Source: Escherichia phage egaa
Sequence record: NC_049852.1
DNA: 51,643 nt
Direction: 5' to 3' (one strand)
Positions 21,563 through 27,800 of this stretch are shown here, in pieces. The translations under genes were made by a program, and so were the position numbers. A model generated the notes under the pieces. The model saw only the letters and a list, made by a program, of their open reading frames with translations, was not told the origin of the DNA and searched no databases. How positions within the stretch are numbered: position 1 is the stretch's first letter; each line of letters starts with the position of its first letter.

Positions 21563-22624
21563 TTAAATAAGATATTGCTTAAACTGGCGGCGCACCCAAT
21601 CAGGAGTATCAAGACAAACCTCCGGCTCACCGTTTGAATACGAAGGCCAAACGTCATGTTGCTGGCACATGGCAAACTGGTTAATTACGCTCATGTACTG
21701 AATGCGCCCGATCTTCAATTGCTCGCTGTTCATGCGGAAAGCCAACGGCAAATAAGGCTCTTTCTTCTCTTGCGCTAACAGTCGCACAACTATAGGTCGC
21801 TTTTCTTCTGGATACGCTTTTCTGAATAAATCACATTGCAACGCCATTTTCAAATAATAGCCGTGATTGTAAGCCAGGCGCATAAACTCAGCCGGATTCG
21901 CGCTCATTGTAGTTTTGTAGTCTGTGATCACAATGGCCTCTGTATAAATAATATCGCGGCAAATCGGCTGGCCTTTTTCATCGTAACCATCAATCAGCGT
22001 TGCGGTGACGTTCTTTGTTACGTCAACGTGATCGCATCGCACTTTGACTTTTACGCCGTTAATTTCACCGAACAACGATAATTCACGCTGTGCCGTCTTG
22101 CTATTCATGCATGCGTTATGTTCCGGTATTGATTCCAGAACCTGGCGCATTGCCACGCACGAATCGTAATCTTTAGCCTCGATTAACTGAACCCCATCGG
22201 CCCTGGCCTGACTTTCTGCGATCATGTCGATTAACCACATGACGTTAAGGTCTTCTCCGCAGTCAACCATCATTTTTATAAGTTCGGGGTAAGTCTTTCC
22301 GGTTGTACCTTTCAGGCCAAATGATTTCAGCTTTGCAGCAAGCGCCGTTTGGCTGGTTATCAGATCCTTAAAGTCTTCTGGCGCTGGCGCACGGCGATAA
22401 GTTTTTTCGAAAAGCTCCTTGCTTTCAAAGTTGGTATGCGACTGCGTACCAAAAACTAGCGCCTTGCTCTTGTCGTCACGCGGCTTGAACTTCCACGCTG
22501 CCGGGCATGTGCTGTAAATCTCTGCCAGGCTTGAACCGCTAACATAATCAGCCGTCCACGCTTCTGGATCGTGATAAAGCTCGTTGCTCATTTCTTCGCT
22601 GGTGTACGCCATAAACTTATTCAT
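21563..22624 (-). CDS. RecE/YqaJ-like PD-(D/E)XK exonuclease
   Basis: YHDPEAWTADYVSGSSL N-terminal motif and E...VITDYKT (D-x-K) core; upstream of erf-like gene. Confidence 0.65.
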   Translation of the reverse strand: MNKFMAYTSEEMSNELYHDPEAWTADYVSGSSLAEIYSTCPAAWKFKPRDDKSKALVFGTQSHTNFESKELFEKTYRRAPAPEDFKDLITSQTALAAKLKSFGLKGTTGKTYPELIKMMVDCGEDLNVMWLIDMIAESQARADGVQLIEAKDYDSCVAMRQVLESIPEHNACMNSKTAQRELSLFGEINGVKVKVRCDHVDVTKNVTATLIDGYDEKGQPICRDIIYTEAIVITDYKTTMSANPAEFMRLAYNHGYYLKMALQCDLFRKAYPEEKRPIVVRLLAQEKKEPYLPLAFRMNSEQLKIGRIQYMSVINQFAMCQQHDVWPSYSNGEPEVCLDTPDWVRRQFKQYLI

Positions 22625-22779
22625 GATTTGCCCTCGTTTGTTGGTATGCCTGCATTTTAGCTATTTAATGCGTTTAGTCAACAGTTATTTTGTTTTTTCT
22701 GTTCTAACAACGTTCCAGACGAATCGGATAACAAAATTTACATGTAAGTGATTGATAAATATCTTTGTTGTCTTTTTGT

Positions 22780-22980
22780 TCTCTTGTTCCTCCATTTGCG
22801 CCGGATATAGATATATAGACACACACAAGCACTGACACATACACAACCACATAAAAATTACCAGACACACAAAATCACACAAAACATAGATAACAAGAAA
22901 AAACAAATATAAATATATATACTGCTAACTTATTGATTTATATATATGTATATATATTTATCTGTATTTATTACGCTCTA
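22780..22980. repeat. CA-rich G-depleted tract plus (TA)n-rich segment (second copy of element at 586-720)
   Basis: acacacaagcactgacacatacacaaccacataaaaa...tatatatatgtatatatattta; shares atacacaaccaca with 616-628. Confidence 0.6.
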
Positions 22981-23049
22981 TTGTTGCTCACTTTTTGCGC
23001 TAAATTTACGCCTCCGCAGATTTGAGAACGCAGGAAAACAAAAAGAACA

Positions 23050-23093
23050 GAATAGCACTTTTTGCTAAACGACCGCCGCAAGATCGTGTATAG
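23050..23093 (+). promoter_or_regulatory. element variant AATAGCACTTTTTGCTAAAC + 22-nt spacer + TATAGT
   Basis: 57 nt upstream of lipoprotein gene ATG. Confidence 0.55.
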
Positions 23094-23125
23094 TTGCAAC
23101 CAACAACAACTAAGGAGATACCAAG

Positions 23126-23353
23126 ATGAAAAAATTAATCGCCGTTTTGATTGCAGCCGCAACCCTGACTGGTTGCGCAAATATGCCTAAGCGTGAATGC
23201 ACGGCTATTTATGAAAATAGCGGTATGCAGTATTCAGTTGCTATTTTTGGAGTAAAACGAGTTGGCGACCGCACTCTTGTTAAGGCTGGCTATCCGTTTA
23301 ATTTTCAGTGGGTAAGTATTGATAACTTTAAAAACGCTGATTGCAGTATGTAA
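23126..23353 (+). CDS. Llp/Cor-like superinfection-exclusion lipoprotein (putative receptor blocker)
   Basis: Lipoprotein signal MKKLIAVLIAAATLTGC; mature part PKRECTAIYE...VKRVGDRTLV...C resembles, from memory, T5 Llp (FhuA-blocking); single plus gene with own promoter and terminator next to tail tip genes. Confidence 0.6.
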   Translation: MKKLIAVLIAAATLTGCANMPKRECTAIYENSGMQYSVAIFGVKRVGDRTLVKAGYPFNFQWVSIDNFKNADCSM

Positions 23354-23361
23354 ATAAAAAT

Positions 23362-23386
23362 AAAGGGGCGAAAGCCCCTTTTTCAT
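23362..23386. terminator. bidirectional intrinsic terminator
   Basis: aggggc-gaaa-gcccct followed by TTTT (plus) and preceded by A-run (minus). Confidence 0.65.
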
Positions 23387-24024
23387 TGGTCGTAAATATC
23401 AGTCCTTATTGCAATTATTGAATTTCCGTTATTTGTTATAGATCCTGTTCCTGGCGTTGTCCTTGCTGCACCTATCCTTGTGCTTGAACCATCATACCTG
23501 CATGATGTATATATGTCAGAAGCACCCATGCCTACAACCGCACCAAGCCTTGAAGGGCAAACGGCATAAGAACCAGATAACGTTTGATCTATATTCGTTC
23601 CACCTGAAGAACCAGGAGTACCAATTGTAACAAGATCTGTTAGTACCCTGCTTTCATTAGTTAAAACCAACTTGCCGCTTGCATCCCATATAGCCATACC
23701 ATATTTCGGTAGATTTTGAGGGAAGATGGCAAATATATAAACAGTCATTGTAAATGATTGCCCGTATGGATTGCCTCCGTTTACATAAATGTTGCCACCA
23801 TTCCTGTAAGCTATTAATGCAGTTGGCTGCTGTGTGTTTGTTGTTTTTATAAATGCCATACATGGATAAGATTGATTTAATGGTATATTTGCGCTTGCGC
23901 TATGATAGGCAGAAGTGCCAGAAGATGAATAAGTGTACTTGCCATATAAGCAAAATGGCGTTGATTTTGGTGTGATAAATGGATTACCATTTGATAAAGA
24001 TAACATTGCTCCATATTCAGCCAT
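23383..24024 (-). CDS. tail-distal protein encoded downstream of J (candidate receptor-binding module), paralog of 24026-24331
   Basis: In-frame ATG (codon 9 of track ORF) MAEYGAMLSLSNGNPF; internal repeat MAIWDASGK; Gly/Ser/Thr-rich. Confidence 0.5.
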   Translation of the reverse strand: MAEYGAMLSLSNGNPFITPKSTPFCLYGKYTYSSSGTSAYHSASANIPLNQSYPCMAFIKTTNTQQPTALIAYRNGGNIYVNGGNPYGQSFTMTVYIFAIFPQNLPKYGMAIWDASGKLVLTNESRVLTDLVTIGTPGSSGGTNIDQTLSGSYAVCPSRLGAVVGMGASDIYTSCRYDGSSTRIGAARTTPGTGSITNNGNSIIAIRTDIYDQ

Positions 24025-24025
24025 T

Positions 24026-24331
24026 TTAAGCCCTCTCAAGAAAAACAACTAACTCGCACTTTGAAGAAGAATACCTATTTGGACCAACTGACGATGTAGG
24101 ACTAATTCTTATTGTATTTCCAGATGCTACTATTTCCCTTCCAACCCCTCTAGCACCCTCATCAAGCGAAACAACATACCCAACCTTAAAACCACTTGGA
24201 ATGCTAAAGCTCCACGATCCGCTTGTCTGACCAGCCGCAAGGCTAATGACACCAACAACGGAAACTGGCTTGATTCCGTAGTTGTTATACTTCCCGTTAG
24301 CATCCCACGTTGAAACACCATATTCAGCCAT
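24026..24331 (-). CDS. small tail-distal protein (101 aa), paralogous N-terminus MAEYGVSTWDANGK
   Basis: In-frame ATG (codon 33 of track ORF 24026-24427) with RBS GGAGGtttaataATG; track ORF start overlaps J. Confidence 0.5.
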   Translation of the reverse strand: MAEYGVSTWDANGKYNNYGIKPVSVVGVISLAAGQTSGSWSFSIPSGFKVGYVVSLDEGARGVGREIVASGNTIRISPTSSVGPNRYSSSKCELVVFLERA

Positions 24332-24374
24332 TATTAAACCTCCATAAATGCGGGGCAAATGCCCCGCTTTGATT

Positions 24375-27300
24375 TTACCACGTACCAGTAAGCCTACCGA
24401 TCTGAACACGCAAAACGCCGTTTGCATCCCTAACGCTGATCGTTTCGTTTGTCATTTTCATGGCCCCCTCTCCAGGAGTAGAACCATAATTTTCAAACGT
24501 TCCGTTTTTATCCAGCCTCCATCCTGTTTGATTCCAAACGTAATTATTTGATTGGATGAAGTTACCGATCATGGCGTTTGTGATTGATCCGTTTTTCACT
24601 AACAGGCTGTTAATGAAAACTTGGTTATTTTCAACCACAAAAGGCAATGTATACGACCCTCCGGTCGAACTTGTCATGATAGCGAACCTGTTCGCATCAA
24701 ACAAAATCTGCGAAATAAGGCCGGATGAACCCTGCGAAAGCTGCATCACCATACCAGCACTGTACTTCTGACCGTTGTATGTCAATCCAAGTTTCATTGC
24801 GTACTGTGCGCCAACTCCATTAACGCCAGCCCATGAATCAAGTTTTTCCGTCAGCGCTGATTCAACATCTCCAAACTTCGCTGTTAATGCTGTGTCAGCA
24901 GAAACGCGCGCCTCTGTTTCGCTTGCAATCGCCTCCTCAACTCTCGTTAACTGCCCCTGAATATCATCTCCAATCTGTGATTTCAATTCCTCAATGGCTG
25001 TTGCTCTCGTTTCCGATTCTGTTGCAATTGCCTGATCAAGCCTCGTTACTTCGCTAGTTATTTCCTCGTCAAATTCAGCCTTGAGTTGCGTCATTGCGGT
25101 AACGCGCGCCTCAGTTTCATCTGCGATCAACTGTATTGATTGCCTGAATTCGGCTTTGCGTTTTCCGTTTTCCTTCCTCATAATCCTAACGTCTGCATCA
25201 TTCGCCAATGCGTTTTGAATGATGCTTTGCGCCTGATCCTTGATTTTGTTTGCGCTATCAATGGCATTCTCTTTCAGATCCTTCCCTGCTTCGGTATCAA
25301 AAATCTTATCAAGAATATTGCCTAAAACAGCCTCCACATCATCTGAAGCCATGCCTCTAACAAAATCAGTCCATCCGGAAACGTTGCCGATTCTGTCAAC
25401 ACTGCGGATTCTATACCATACAACATGACCAGCCGGAAGCGTACCGTGCCAGTATTCATATTGTGGATATGGGATCAGAGTTAACAGGCTTGAGTTTTCA
25501 GCCGTTCCATCCGGCGACTGATGAAGCTCAATGTATGCCGTGTCTCCGCTGCCTTCTGGCATCCCCCACTTAACACGAATGCCAAACACCTCATTGTCGG
25601 ATGCAGTTAAGTTAACTGGCGCGCCTGGCTCTCCTACCTTACCAGTCAGTGAAGCTGTTACAATTCTGGACCACGGCGACGTCGAACCTGAAGCAGAAAC
25701 AGATCTAACCCTTACCTGGTAGTTTCCTGAATAAATACCTTCAACCTCAATTTCTTTGTTTGCAGTCTGTGGTGTATTCAGCCAGTTGCCATCACCTTTT
25801 CGCCACTGCATTTCATACAGCGATGCGTAAGGTACTTTATCCCACGACACAACCATTGTTTCAACGCTTGCACCCTGGACAATTCGCGAGTAGGAGGATA
25901 TTTGCACATTTTCAGGCGCTGCCATTGTGTCAGGCTGGACAATTGAAGTTGGCCTGTCGTCAATGTTTACTCCATAATCAATCTCGTCGTATTTGTTCGG
26001 GTCATATTCAACAGCCGTGATGGAGTATGTAAATTCATCATCATCATCACCTTTGCCGATACTCGTTACAACGTATTGCTGCAATGCAATATCAGTGCGG
26101 TCGATTGCAAAAACCGTGTCAGGTTTAACCTCAAATCCAAACCCAATATTTAGCTCAATGGTTTTTCCGTCACCGCTTACTTTTGAGATTGTGCGCTTAA
26201 CTGGCTTCCCGTCTGGCTTGTTGATGATAATGAAATCACCTGGTCGCGCGTCAATCTTAAACGGAGCGAACACCTGCAAGCCTGAAACTTCCATCACGCG
26301 CCCTGATAGGTTTAACTTAAGGTTGCTGCTGTGAAAGTTGTCAGCAATAGCAATCACATCACCTATTGATGGGATCATGCCTTCCAGTCCAGTAGCAAAG
26401 TTTACCGTAGTGCTGCGCAAGTTAGTTTTTAGTATCCATCGACCGCGCCGATTAGCCTCACTCCTGCGTGTACATCCAATCGCTGTTATGCTTGTAGGAT
26501 TGTATCCAAATCGCAATGCTGCCTCGGTGTCGAATACGCCCTCTACGTCCTGTTGGTACATGTTTTGTTCGTCGTCGAACGTCACGTTGCACTGCGTGTA
26601 CATGCTCTTTTCGCTTGCTGTTGTGTACTGAAAATCACCATCAACAACGTTGTCATTGGTGAAGATGTACGACGGATCGCGCGGCTTATCAATGACGATT
26701 GACAAGCTCTCGCCATTCCAAAAGCTCATGCCTCGGAAGATTGAGCAAATATCACGAATAAGCTGATAAGCCTCAATCTGGCTTTGAATCACAACGTCGC
26801 ATAGATAACGCGGCTCTGTACCGCCTTTTCCATCCGGCACTTTCTGATCGCAGTATTGCGCCGCTTCGTAAAGACTCCATTTGTCAACCTGCACGCCAAG
26901 TTCTCGCTGATCTAATCCGTATCGCTGGTTTGTGATAATGTCATAAAGAACCCACGCCGGATTGTTCGACCACGCTTTCTTGAAAGTACCATCCCATGAA
27001 CCGTGATACTCTCGCATTACCGGATCGTAATTGCTCGGAACATTAATTAACTTCCATTTCTTCTTGATTGAAATGTTAGGGATCTGGTTAGGGAACAACT
27101 CACTGTCAAATTCAACGTATACAAGACCAGTCAGAGGATAACGGAATTTTGCATCAATAACCTCAGCGTAACTTTGTAGCTTAATCAGATCAGTAACGCG
27201 AGAGGATGCGCTGTCTGCCGTAACCCTTCTAACCCTAAGCAATACGCGATCATTAAATGCCGGAAGGTCAATCCTTCGGCTTCTGTCGTAACCGGAACGC

Positions 27301-27800
27301 GTTTTACCTTCGATGGTGTCTAGCAATACTTCTTTGTAAGAGTCTCCGTCAACAGCCATATCAACAGCATAAGTAACCTTAACGCCGACAAGATCGCCGT
27401 TATCCTCTTGCTTAATGCCTGTTGGCATTAGCATTTTGATTCTGATAGCCGATAATGTTTTGTTTGTTACAGAAATTACATAAGGATTTGATGTAGTAAT
27501 GTCACGCGCCAGCGTCACTTCGCTTGATGTGTCAGTAAATCCCTGGATGTAATCTTGCGTCTGCGTTCCAGGGCGAAATTCAGCTTTCACACCCTGGTAG
27601 TTAACAGTTCCGTCGTCTGCAATTACCGGAACATCATCAAGATACAGATCGCGAAGTGTAAAACTTGGATCGCACTCACCATCGGAAACGGCAAGAAGTA
27701 TTTTGATTTTGTTGATTGAGATCAGGTTATCTTCCATCTCTTTCGGAACATAAGGTTTTGATGATCCACCCTTACTGCCCGTTATCATATTTTCAGCCAT
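24375..27800 (-). CDS. central tail fiber / tail tip protein (lambda J-like host specificity protein)
   Basis: 1141 aa; position after I/K/L/M homologs; size and conserved gene order of lambda-like tail tip. Confidence 0.85.
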   Translation of the reverse strand: MAENMITGSKGGSSKPYVPKEMEDNLISINKIKILLAVSDGECDPSFTLRDLYLDDVPVIADDGTVNYQGVKAEFRPGTQTQDYIQGFTDTSSEVTLARDITTSNPYVISVTNKTLSAIRIKMLMPTGIKQEDNGDLVGVKVTYAVDMAVDGDSYKEVLLDTIEGKTRSGYDRSRRIDLPAFNDRVLLRVRRVTADSASSRVTDLIKLQSYAEVIDAKFRYPLTGLVYVEFDSELFPNQIPNISIKKKWKLINVPSNYDPVMREYHGSWDGTFKKAWSNNPAWVLYDIITNQRYGLDQRELGVQVDKWSLYEAAQYCDQKVPDGKGGTEPRYLCDVVIQSQIEAYQLIRDICSIFRGMSFWNGESLSIVIDKPRDPSYIFTNDNVVDGDFQYTTASEKSMYTQCNVTFDDEQNMYQQDVEGVFDTEAALRFGYNPTSITAIGCTRRSEANRRGRWILKTNLRSTTVNFATGLEGMIPSIGDVIAIADNFHSSNLKLNLSGRVMEVSGLQVFAPFKIDARPGDFIIINKPDGKPVKRTISKVSGDGKTIELNIGFGFEVKPDTVFAIDRTDIALQQYVVTSIGKGDDDDEFTYSITAVEYDPNKYDEIDYGVNIDDRPTSIVQPDTMAAPENVQISSYSRIVQGASVETMVVSWDKVPYASLYEMQWRKGDGNWLNTPQTANKEIEVEGIYSGNYQVRVRSVSASGSTSPWSRIVTASLTGKVGEPGAPVNLTASDNEVFGIRVKWGMPEGSGDTAYIELHQSPDGTAENSSLLTLIPYPQYEYWHGTLPAGHVVWYRIRSVDRIGNVSGWTDFVRGMASDDVEAVLGNILDKIFDTEAGKDLKENAIDSANKIKDQAQSIIQNALANDADVRIMRKENGKRKAEFRQSIQLIADETEARVTAMTQLKAEFDEEITSEVTRLDQAIATESETRATAIEELKSQIGDDIQGQLTRVEEAIASETEARVSADTALTAKFGDVESALTEKLDSWAGVNGVGAQYAMKLGLTYNGQKYSAGMVMQLSQGSSGLISQILFDANRFAIMTSSTGGSYTLPFVVENNQVFINSLLVKNGSITNAMIGNFIQSNNYVWNQTGWRLDKNGTFENYGSTPGEGAMKMTNETISVRDANGVLRVQIGRLTGTW

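Follow-up and report, generated by a model that had tools for sequence, protein, structure and literature searches.

A probable FhuA-type host-recognition and superinfection-exclusion cassette in the T1-like coliphage egaa

Organization of the locus

In the genome of Escherichia phage egaa a lone lipoprotein gene faces two small genes that follow the homolog of tail gene J, which raises the question whether this locus sets the receptor of the phage and also closes that receptor to competitors. A sequence-only reading of the window (the whole stretch of 51,643 nucleotides, record NC_049852.1) had proposed a receptor-binding module, possibly for FhuA, with a cognate exclusion lipoprotein, and this proposal is supported. 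We read the locus as the cassette that serves FhuA-type host recognition and superinfection exclusion in T1-like and lambdoid siphoviruses, and assign this reading a probability of about 85%. The window is that of a Hanrivervirus-type T1-like coliphage. Over this locus it shares 99.2% nucleotide identity with phages herni and G29-2 and 94% with JLBYU41. The following genes are involved:

21563–22624, minus strand: exonuclease VIII, one of the recombination genes
23126–23353, plus strand: cor, precursor of a superinfection-exclusion lipoprotein, 75 aa (NF047972, phrog_1119, Cor alignment)
23383–24024, minus strand: 213-aa tail-distal protein (N15 gp23 / phrog_425), named 'membrane associated protein'
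24026–24331, minus strand: 101-aa tail-distal protein (N15 gp22 / phrog_557), named 'outer membrane protein'
24375–27800, minus strand: J-like central tail fibre / tail tip protein, 1141 aa (Pfam, phrog_31)

J and the genes for the 101-aa and 213-aa proteins form a single run on the minus strand; both small genes lie directly downstream of J, as had been noted from the sequence, and the 213-aa gene is the second after J. The stop codon of the 101-aa gene and the start codon of the 213-aa gene are one base apart (TAAaATG), both genes have a good Shine-Dalgarno sequence, and the two are translationally coupled. The cor gene converges on this run and is the sole plus-strand gene between the minus-strand recombination genes and the minus-strand tail genes.

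The lipoprotein and its relation to T5 Llp

The precursor starts with MKKLIAVLIAAATLTG|C. Its signal peptide and lipobox (LTGC, with Cys17) are encoded at positions 23126–23176, and the mature protein of 59 aa has an alanine at position +2 and the conserved cysteines Cys25 and Cys73. The NCBIfam equivalog model NF047972 recognizes it with 69.4 bits (curated cut-off 31 bits; residues 1–74 aligned with model positions 1–77 of 78) and phrog_1119 with an E-value of 3.1e-28, while the Pfam model LPAM_1 scores 19.4 bits, slightly below its cut-off of 20. An alignment of 16 Cor sequences, including those of T1, phi80, N15 and ES18, showed residues C17, C25, G33, G55, V63, F68 and C73 to be invariant. 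Identity is 96% to Cor of JLBYU41, 89% and 80% to the proteins of the BASEL phages Bas05 and Bas09, 57% to T1 Cor and 33–36% to Cor of phi80 and N15, the two proteins that had been suggested for comparison. Judged by these matches the lipoprotein is a bona fide Cor. Exclusion by Cor reportedly involves other outer-membrane proteins as well, a finding ascribed to Arguijo-Hernandez et al. 2018.

The sequence-only reading had described the protein as Llp/Cor-like. Both the lipoprotein gene and its likeness to Cor hold up, whereas T5 Llp specifically is, as far as sequence goes, only a marginal relative. A PDB search with the single Cor sequence gave no match, Llp included. With the profile of 16 Cor sequences, T5 Llp (8a60_B) came out on top of the PDB at a marginal E-value of 0.015 (18.6 bits), in a full-length alignment with the lipid cysteine and both disulfide cysteines in register. 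An identity of approximately 20% between Cor and Llp, including the disulfide, has been published, and Llp binds from the periplasmic side (PMC9586334). In a published AF3 model with an ipTM of 0.84, a T1-like Cor sits at the periplasmic face of FhuA (PMC13164509). Since the sequence relation is marginal, the periplasmic, allosteric mechanism is transferred to the egaa protein by analogy.

Transcription signals

The following signals were assigned around cor and the tail operon's distal end:

23051–23094, plus strand: cor promoter element, gaATAGCACTTTTTGCTAAA, 19 nt, TATAGT (recurring phage element)
23112–23117, plus strand: Shine-Dalgarno sequence AAGGAG of cor, 8 nt before the ATG (read from the sequence)
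23362–23381, shared by both strands: intrinsic terminator hairpin AAAGGGGCGAAAGCCCCTTT, common to cor (plus) and the tail operon (minus); in the terminator listing on the minus strand
24350–24367, no strand assigned: GC-rich hairpin GCGGGGCAAATGCCCCGC, located after the stop codon of J and before the 101-aa gene, terminator-like on the plus strand

The promoter element takes the form AATAGCACTTTTTGTTAAAA, then approximately 19 nt, then a TATAAT-like hexamer. The window contains 13 good copies, one of them upstream of cor, and a -10-like hexamer follows every copy at a fixed distance. Its 10-mer has 20 matches in the window with at most one mismatch, compared with 7.9 ± 2.8 in shuffled sequences. 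This enrichment, together with the 13 good copies, indicates that the element promoter proposed for cor from the sequence is real. Directly upstream of cor, a generic sigma-70 scan did not detect any promoter, because the element lacks a canonical -35 hexamer at 17 bp. A permissive scan of the same region returned only TAAACG-17-TATAGT with 8/12 matches; the cor promoter is recognized only via the recurring element.

The hairpin behind cor is flanked by T-runs on both sides and thus is bidirectional between the convergent genes; on the plus strand it reads GGGGCgaaaGCCCC followed by TTTTT. The deposited annotation of G29-2 has two terminator features within its match to this locus. With its own promoter element and terminator, cor is a unit separate from the flanking operons and in this sense a moron, as the sequence-only reading had it. 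Its GC content of 0.39–0.40 is not strikingly different from that of J (0.42–0.50). On the minus strand, the sense strand of the tail genes, the hairpin at the end of J has no good T-run; it may be an attenuator or an RNA-stabilizing element.

The two tail-distal proteins

The 213-aa protein matches phrog_425 with an E-value of 1.9e-68 (residues 1–212 to 1–224 of 224). Its 107 database homologs include proteins of T1, phi80, N15, JLBYU37 and JLBYU41 with 54–97% identity, the highest value being that of the JLBYU41 counterpart. Variable segments comprise residues 33–49, 71–89, 165–170 and 188–194. The 101-aa protein matches phrog_557 with an E-value of 5.6e-30 (residues 3–99 to 2–99 of 100) and has 105 homologs, with identities of 98% (JLBYU41), 71% (phi80) and 60% (T1).

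Neither protein had a sequence match in the PDB, Pfam or NCBIfam. AF2 models of both show a compact β-sandwich; the model of the 101-aa protein has a pLDDT of 87.7 and six strands, with low confidence for the N-terminal ~20 residues. Foldseek searches of the PDB yielded nothing significant for either model. The best hit of the 213-aa model was the C-terminal domain of PCSK9 (E-value 0.018, TM-score 0.25), that of the 101-aa model the Sf6 tailspike (E-value 0.2). The published likeness of the ~11-kDa protein to the C-terminal Ig domain of lambda gpJ was not reproduced at the Foldseek thresholds used. The 213-aa model does resemble a solved receptor-binding protein from the same type of locus, one that is experimentally proven. 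At the sequence level the links of the 213-aa family to LptD-type receptor-binding proteins are weak, phrog_1265 being matched by only 5 of 56 members.

The database names and other legacy annotations suggest that the two proteins are not parts of the virion. The PHROG category of their families, 'moron', points in the same direction, and PMC13164509 assumes a role in superinfection exclusion because of the association with cor and a predicted membrane localization. A location in the membrane was rejected for the egaa proteins: neither has a signal peptide or a transmembrane segment, and their Kyte-Doolittle hydropathy (19-residue window) peaks at 0.89 (213-aa protein) and 1.05 (101-aa protein). 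Further evidence against non-virion proteins comes from gene arrangement, as the two genes share the orientation of the tail operon and are coupled to it in translation, whereas cor stands apart as a convergent unit. In Klebsiella T1-like phages, homologs of the 213-aa protein are present while cor matches are rare (111 records vs 2). Considering also the resemblance of the 213-aa model to a receptor-binding protein, we regard a non-virion role as very unlikely.

The 213-aa protein is probably the FhuA-binding receptor-binding protein, and the 101-aa protein is probably a small β-sandwich adaptor between the tip of J and the 213-aa protein. Citing AF3 support, published work regards the FhuA family as a genuine receptor-binding protein. 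The roles of the two proteins could also be reversed. The 101-aa protein would then be the adhesin that contacts FhuA, capping J as an Ig-like trimer, and the 213-aa protein would be an accessory protein, chaperone or secondary binder. The 101-aa gene indeed comes immediately after J, and the weak fold matches of its product are to distal β-sandwich domains of tailspikes and pyocin fibres (E-values 0.2–0.3). Published AF2-multimer models of the FhuA phage JLBYU60, however, favoured the ~21–23 kDa 'hand-like' protein for FhuA, and the poorest FhuA model was the one with the trimeric small protein. Moreover, across the cor-cassette phages the 101-aa family is more conserved (60–71%) than the 213-aa family (54–61%). 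The reversed assignment is unlikely, and we retain the 213-aa protein as the probable FhuA binder.

The J homolog and its tip

The J homolog matches phrog_31 ('central tail fiber J') and the Pfam families Phage_Tail_Tip (E-value 1e-40), FNIII-A_GpJ (7e-38) and Phage-tail_3 (4e-23). Its C-terminal end is shared with phages that carry the cor cassette:

24375–24482, minus strand: C-terminal ~35 residues of J (...GEGAMKMTNETISVRDANGVLRVQIGRLTGTW), delimited by comparison with cor-cassette phages and Rtp

This tail sequence is conserved in T1, JLBYU41, JLBYU37, ES18, phi80 and N15 and differs in the LptD-type phage Rtp. In the in situ structure of T1, residues 821–1172 of J and everything distal to them are unresolved (PMC11945409).

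Lambda J binds LamB directly, and an extension of J is used by TolC- and LamB-type T1-like phages according to published work. By analogy the C-terminal part of J itself might bind FhuA, with the small proteins as dispensable decorations, a role of J that Lewis et al. 2023 assumed; in PMC10373560, too, J is analysed as the receptor-binding protein. The J protein of Rtp, an LptD phage, nevertheless shares 59% identity along 1129 residues, with most differences in the last ~30, and receptor use has been reported to track the locus downstream of J. Hanriverviruses also vary in their receptor: JLBYU41 uses FhuA, whereas Bas06 (closest relative herni) was modelled as BtuB-binding. FhuA binding by J itself is thus extremely unlikely, and the 213-aa protein remains the probable candidate.

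A motif shared by J and the two small proteins

Both small proteins begin with MAEYG, and from this the sequence-only reading had derived a common N-terminal module and called the proteins paralogous. The motif behind this proposal is real. In the 213-aa protein, however, it is internal: the N-terminus of the 101-aa protein, MAEYGVSTWDANGK, best matches residues 105–118 of the 213-aa protein, LPKYGMAIWDASGK (BLASTP E-value 7e-4), and not its N-terminus, MAEYGAMLSLSNGN. In the 213-aa family, residues G109, W113 and G117 are invariant or nearly so (56 homologs); the 101-aa family has an invariant G5 and G13 and a nearly invariant D10 (42 homologs). The C-terminus of J carries the same motif as xRDANG.

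Outside the motif the similarity of the two tail proteins is weak. An hhalign comparison of the full-length family profiles aligned just 17 columns (E-value 3.7e-4, probability 36%), so that full paralogy is not established. Split profiles gave a probability of 58% for the C-terminal half of the 213-aa family against the 101-aa family, 19% for the N-terminal half against the 101-aa family, and less than 1% for the two halves against each other; taken together, these values are suggestive only. The term 'paralogous' was therefore too strong for what is a conserved stretch of ~15 residues that also occurs at the end of J.

As a hairpin motif of the form x-(W/R)-D-A-(N/S)-G, this stretch occurs only three times in the long open reading frames of the whole window, namely at the extreme C-terminus of J, at the N-terminus of the 101-aa protein and midway through the 213-aa protein, at its domain boundary. 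Tentatively, and with less than even confidence, we suggest that the motif could be used repeatedly for docking, with J chained to the 101-aa protein and the latter to the 213-aa protein. If true, it would explain the co-variation of the J tip with the cassette and would define what to swap jointly when retargeting such phages. P0216, in which J seems to be fused to the 101-aa protein, was set aside, as it appears to be a fragment of a prophage with a frameshift rather than a natural fusion.

Comparison with known systems

The expectation from the sequence that T1-like phages encode receptor-binding genes and an exclusion lipoprotein together after J is supported by synteny. We found cor and gp22/gp23-type genes after J in T1, phi80, N15, ES18, mEp390, JLBYU37 and JLBYU41, with identities of about 36–98%. 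As Wietzorrek 2006 is summarized in PMC13164509, the same cassette occurs in T1, HK022, N15, ES18 and phi80, all reliant on FhuA, and close relatives that do not use FhuA lack it. A correlation of the receptor with the locus downstream of gpJ has been published. Deletion and complementation, described in PMC10373560, showed that JLBYU41 needs fhuA, and FhuA has been assigned as the receptor of Bas05 and Bas09. All three small egaa proteins belong to families that accompany FhuA use and are 96–98% identical to those of the FhuA-requiring JLBYU41.

The cassettes of T1, herni, G29-2 and JLBYU41 match that of egaa in the order and direction of their genes, including a cor that converges on the tail operon, and contain the same three families. 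In T1 (J/gp33, two small ORFs, cor) the proteins are 54–60% identical to those of egaa. The 213-aa protein of the egaa clade lacks a segment of ~11–13 residues after residue 168 that is present in 50 of 56 homologs. JLBYU41, which has the same short form, requires no single FhuA loop, compared with loop 4 for T1 and loop 8 for phi80 and T5, according to PMC10373560.

The module of phi80/N15/HK022-type lambdoid phages, all of them FhuA phages according to PMC13164509, likewise lies directly after J and comprises a 100-aa protein (66–71% identity), a ~224-aa protein (56–61%) and Cor (33–36%). In these temperate phages cor is co-directional with J and expressed from the prophage, leading to lysogenic conversion, whereas in egaa it forms a convergent unit of its own, in a genome of the lytic type.

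T5 pb5/Llp (PDB entries 8A60 and 8B14) follows the same logic, combining a dedicated receptor-binding protein on a straight fibre with an FhuA-blocking outer-membrane lipoprotein. Among the neighbours of cor there is no pb5 homolog; phrog_425 and phrog_557 are found instead, with no PDB sequence match despite the solved pb5. According to the literature, pb5 and the egaa-type receptor-binding proteins have unrelated folds.

The LptD-type locus, known from Rtp44/Rtp45 and the receptor-binding and exclusion proteins of Oekolampad (PDB entry 9RPT), is directed at LptD. It has a single ~311-aa protein without a 100-aa partner, an unrelated exclusion lipoprotein (phrog_4281) and a different J tip, and Rtp has no homolog of any of the three small proteins. 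That the 311-aa protein is a fusion of the 101-aa and 213-aa proteins finds no support in sequence (probability <4% for the 101-aa profile against the Rtp44 family).

Proposed mechanism

We propose the following mechanism. The trimeric J fibre would end in a locus-specific C-terminal tip on which the 101-aa β-sandwich protein docks. The two-domain 213-aa β-protein would be held at the very end and bind the extracellular face of FhuA, leading to irreversible adsorption and DNA ejection. Assembly interfaces are probably provided by the conserved N-terminal arms together with the hairpin motif, and the variable loops of the 213-aa protein probably contact FhuA. During infection cor would be transcribed convergently from its own phage-type promoter. 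By analogy, the Cor lipoprotein would block FhuA in infected cells so that FhuA-dependent phages no longer adsorb. This would prevent superinfection and keep progeny from being lost on cell debris.

Implications

The cassette and its link to FhuA are already known, and the locus is real but ordinary; it adds no new biology. The correlation was described by Wietzorrek et al. 2006 (via PMC13164509), by Maffei et al. 2021, in the KanT1 paper (2026) and in a preprint of 2026 that deals with receptor prediction. Of practical use is the correction of the misleading database names 'outer membrane protein' as well as 'membrane associated protein', and so is the structural link, at the level of a model, from the 213-aa protein to a solved receptor-binding protein. 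The cassette helps with annotation, with the prediction of resistance (fhuA or tonA strains) and with the choice of modules in receptor-swap engineering. For phage egaa itself, the cassette predicts that FhuA (TonA) is the terminal receptor and that infected cells would be refractory to other FhuA-dependent phages, e.g. T1, phi80 and T5.

Organization of the locus

The locus is a textbook example of the already published FhuA/Cor cassette, in which the gene of an exclusion lipoprotein stands beside two small genes that come after J, the tail tip (central tail fibre) homolog. All features listed by the sequence-only reading at 23126-24331 and in the flanks are present, including the ORFs, their orientations and the hairpin terminator:

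21563-22624 (-): exonuclease VIII, with other recombination genes, left of cor
23126-23353 (+): cor, lone plus-strand ORF, 75 aa, MKKLIAVLIAAATLTG followed by CANMPKRECTAIYENSGMQYSVAIFGVKRVGDRTLVKAGYPFNFQWVSIDNFKNADCSM, AAGGAG ribosome-binding site
23362-23381: hairpin between the convergent units, T-runs on both sides
23383-24024 (-): 213-aa ORF, convergent on cor
24026-24331 (-): 101-aa ORF, convergent on cor
24350-24367: second, GC-rich hairpin (perfect, 7 bp) in the gap between the J stop codon and the 101-aa gene
24375-27800 (-): J homolog, 1141 aa (Pfam Phage_Tail_Tip, FNIII-A_GpJ, Phage-tail_3)

The tail operon right of cor occupies the minus strand, and a single base separates the stop codon of the 101-aa gene from the ATG of the 213-aa gene. 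The second hairpin is terminator-like on the plus strand, antisense to the tail genes, and a T-run is absent from its sense strand. It might act as an attenuator that sets how much J is made relative to the distal proteins, or it might end antisense transcripts.

Escherichia phages herni and vB_EcoS_G29-2 (Drexlerviridae, Tempevirinae, Hanrivervirus) share 99.2% identity with the locus, and SFP17, Fulano1, vojen, aalborv and JLBYU41 share 94-96%. The locus is also matched by 18 'Campylobacter phage' records (host Campylobacter jejuni; GenBank MG065636-MG065687), and among the matches listed six of these are 94-95% identical across the full locus. They resemble T1-like coliphage genomes, and mislabelling or contamination appears likely.

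The cor promoter and a recurring element

A generic sigma-70 scan found no promoter directly upstream of cor. The 'element promoter' assigned to this gene from the sequence is nevertheless real, because 23051-23094 is a copy of a recurring element whose 10-mer CACTTTTTGC (at most one mismatch) occurs 20 times in the window versus 7.9 ± 2.8 times in shuffles. The copies are as follows:

23051-23094 (+): cor promoter element, AATAGCACTTTTTGTTAAAA, ~19 nt, TATAAT-like hexamer
1006, 1883, 2389, 4439, 7284, 23056, 33723 (+): starts of good copies
51318, 50855, 48583, 45935, 11561, 10541 (-): starts of good copies
22989: degenerate copy

All 13 good copies lie on the same strand as the genes downstream of them. 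The ~19-nt spacer is often a short GC-rich inverted repeat (e.g. gccagg...cctggc), followed by TATAAT or CATAAT, and a canonical -35 hexamer at 17 bp was found in none of the 13. These features suggest that the element is a promoter class specific to the phage or a site bound by a regulator.

The intergenic region between exonuclease VIII and cor (22650-23000) is AT-rich (GC 0.30-0.33) and of low complexity, with CACACA-type and ATATAT-type repeats and many imperfect palindromes. The promoter that drives the recombination genes in the opposite direction must also lie here, and there is one candidate:

22681-22654 (-): TTGACT-16-TAAAAT

Identity of the lipoprotein

By sequence, the 75-aa lipoprotein is Cor. 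It scores 69.4 bits against the NCBI curated equivalog model NF047972 ('phage exclusion lipoprotein Cor', cut-off 31) and matches phrog_1119 with an E-value of 3e-28. Identity amounts to 57% with T1 Cor, 50% with JLBYU37 Cor and 38% with ES18 gp32, and alignment to Cor of phi80, N15 and mEp390 gave 33-36%. In a 16-sequence Cor alignment Cys17 (the lipid attachment site), C25 and C73 are invariant. Cys17 is directly followed by Ala, which according to the +2 rule leads to outer membrane sorting, so that Cor is predicted to reside there.

The proposed likeness to Llp, the FhuA-blocking lipoprotein of T5, is marginal. A PDB search with the single Cor sequence yielded no match, whereas a Cor profile returned Llp (8a60_B) as the top match over its full length, with the three cysteines in register, at an E-value of 0.015. 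[quoted passage not shown]

The two tail-distal proteins

The 213-aa protein falls into phrog_425 (N15 gp23 family, E 2e-68) and the 101-aa protein into phrog_557 (N15 gp22 family, E 6e-30). No sequence match to either was found in Pfam, NCBIfam or the PDB. RefSeq names the three genes 'Cor superinfection exclusion protein', 'membrane associated protein' and 'outer membrane protein'; since both tail-distal proteins lack a signal peptide and a transmembrane segment, the 'membrane' in their names is a legacy label. T1, phi80, N15, ES18, mEp390, JLBYU37 and JLBYU41 all carry the order J, ~100 aa, ~213-229 aa, cor. The temperate phages have cor running the same way as J, whereas it is convergent in T1-like, Dhillonvirus and ES18 genomes.

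Table. Identity of homologs to the 213-aa and 101-aa proteins.
Phage: 213-aa; 101-aa
JLBYU41: 97%; 98%
T1: 54%; 60%
phi80: 61%; 71%
N15: 56%; 66%
JLBYU37: 55%; 63%
ES18: 36%; 51% (partial alignment)

The 101-aa protein was modeled as a six-stranded β-sandwich (pLDDT 87.7) with ~20 floppy N-terminal residues and without a significant PDB match; we take it to be an adaptor.

The two proteins had been read as paralogs with a common N-terminal module. A short shared motif does exist, but it is N-terminal only in the 101-aa protein, where MAEYGVSTWDANGK matches residues 105-118 of the 213-aa protein, LPKYGMAIWDASGK (BLASTP E 7e-4; hhalign 17 columns). The two N-termini themselves match over MAEYG only. 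Split profiles of the 213-aa family aligned weakly to the 101-aa family (C-half 58% probability, N-half 19%) and its halves to each other with a probability below 1%, so paralogy beyond the motif is unproven. The pattern x-(W/R)-D-A-(N/S)-G is present at just three sites among the long ORFs of the window, always in this module:

24431 (-): C-terminus of J (ISVRDANG)
24307 (-): N-terminus of the 101-aa protein
23688 (-): domain boundary of the 213-aa protein, residues 110-117

Judged from its placement, the motif may be a repeated assembly or docking hairpin.

Receptor and receptor-binding protein

The proposal that the exclusion lipoprotein lies beside a receptor-binding module after J, with FhuA as the likely receptor, holds: the cassette families match those of FhuA phages, and a control phage of the LptD type lacks them. 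JLBYU41 fails on MG1655 with fhuA deleted, and complementation restores infection (PMC10373560). The BASEL phages Bas05 and Bas09, whose Cor is 89% and 80% identical to that of the window, are assigned to FhuA. As reviewed in PMC13164509, Wietzorrek et al. 2006 found the cassette in T1, HK022, N15, ES18 and phi80, all FhuA-reliant, and found it lacking in closely related phages not using FhuA. More generally, the receptor (FhuA, BtuB, LptD or YncD) goes with the locus downstream of gpJ (Maffei et al. 2021; a 2026 preprint).

As the control we compared the LptD-type phage Rtp. Its J is 59% identical to that of the window over 1129 residues and differs in the last ~30, and tblastn found no homolog of Cor, the 213-aa or the 101-aa protein in Rtp. 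The J tip ...TISVRDANGVLRVQIGRLTG(T/S/V)(W/F) is common to the cor-cassette phages examined, though their J proteins are otherwise distant, which matches the remark in the 2026 preprint that the C-terminal tip is specificity-associated.

Three observations support the 213-aa protein as the predicted FhuA binder. It matches phrog_1265, the Rtp44 family of LptD-type receptor-binding proteins, with an E-value of 3.7e-5 (at E 0.001 only 5 of the 56 members of its family do so); a profile of nine Rtp44-family proteins aligned to the 213-aa family in hhalign (probability 74.5%, E 2.7e-5, 121 columns); and the PY54 member carries YGLAIWNRAGQ at the position of YGMAIWDASGK in the 213-aa protein. Published AF2-multimer and AF3 modelling agree with this role. 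The virion location of both small proteins is putative; in the T1 in situ structure J was not resolved beyond residue 820.

Variation within the cassette

Conservation in the 213-aa family covers the N-terminal arm and residues 90-164, and residues 33-49, 71-89, 165-170 and 188-194 are variable. A segment of ~11-13 residues after residue 168, present in 50 of 56 homologs, is missing from the Hanrivervirus form (23383-24024, minus strand). The short form is also that of JLBYU41, which, according to PMC10373560, depends on no single FhuA loop, unlike T1, phi80 and T5; a causal tie between the two is speculation.

In PGN590 (NC_049830) Cor is 98.7% identical to that of the window, the 213-aa homolog only 57% and the 101-aa homolog 73%. 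This contrast shows recombination inside the cassette and implies breakpoints between cor and the tail genes. Such mosaicism is expected if the target of Cor is FhuA rather than the receptor-binding protein. Among Klebsiella phages (Webervirus and related), 111 records hold a ~32% identical 213-aa homolog and only two a Cor match; some, e.g. TAH8, have an Rtp44-type protein instead of the 213-aa homolog.

Overall, the observation made from the sequence was confirmed and its interpretation is supported. Two points may go beyond the literature consulted: the threefold motif common to J and the two small proteins, and the link, in structure and in profiles, of the FhuA-type to the LptD-type receptor-binding proteins, families that the 2026 preprint calls unrelated.
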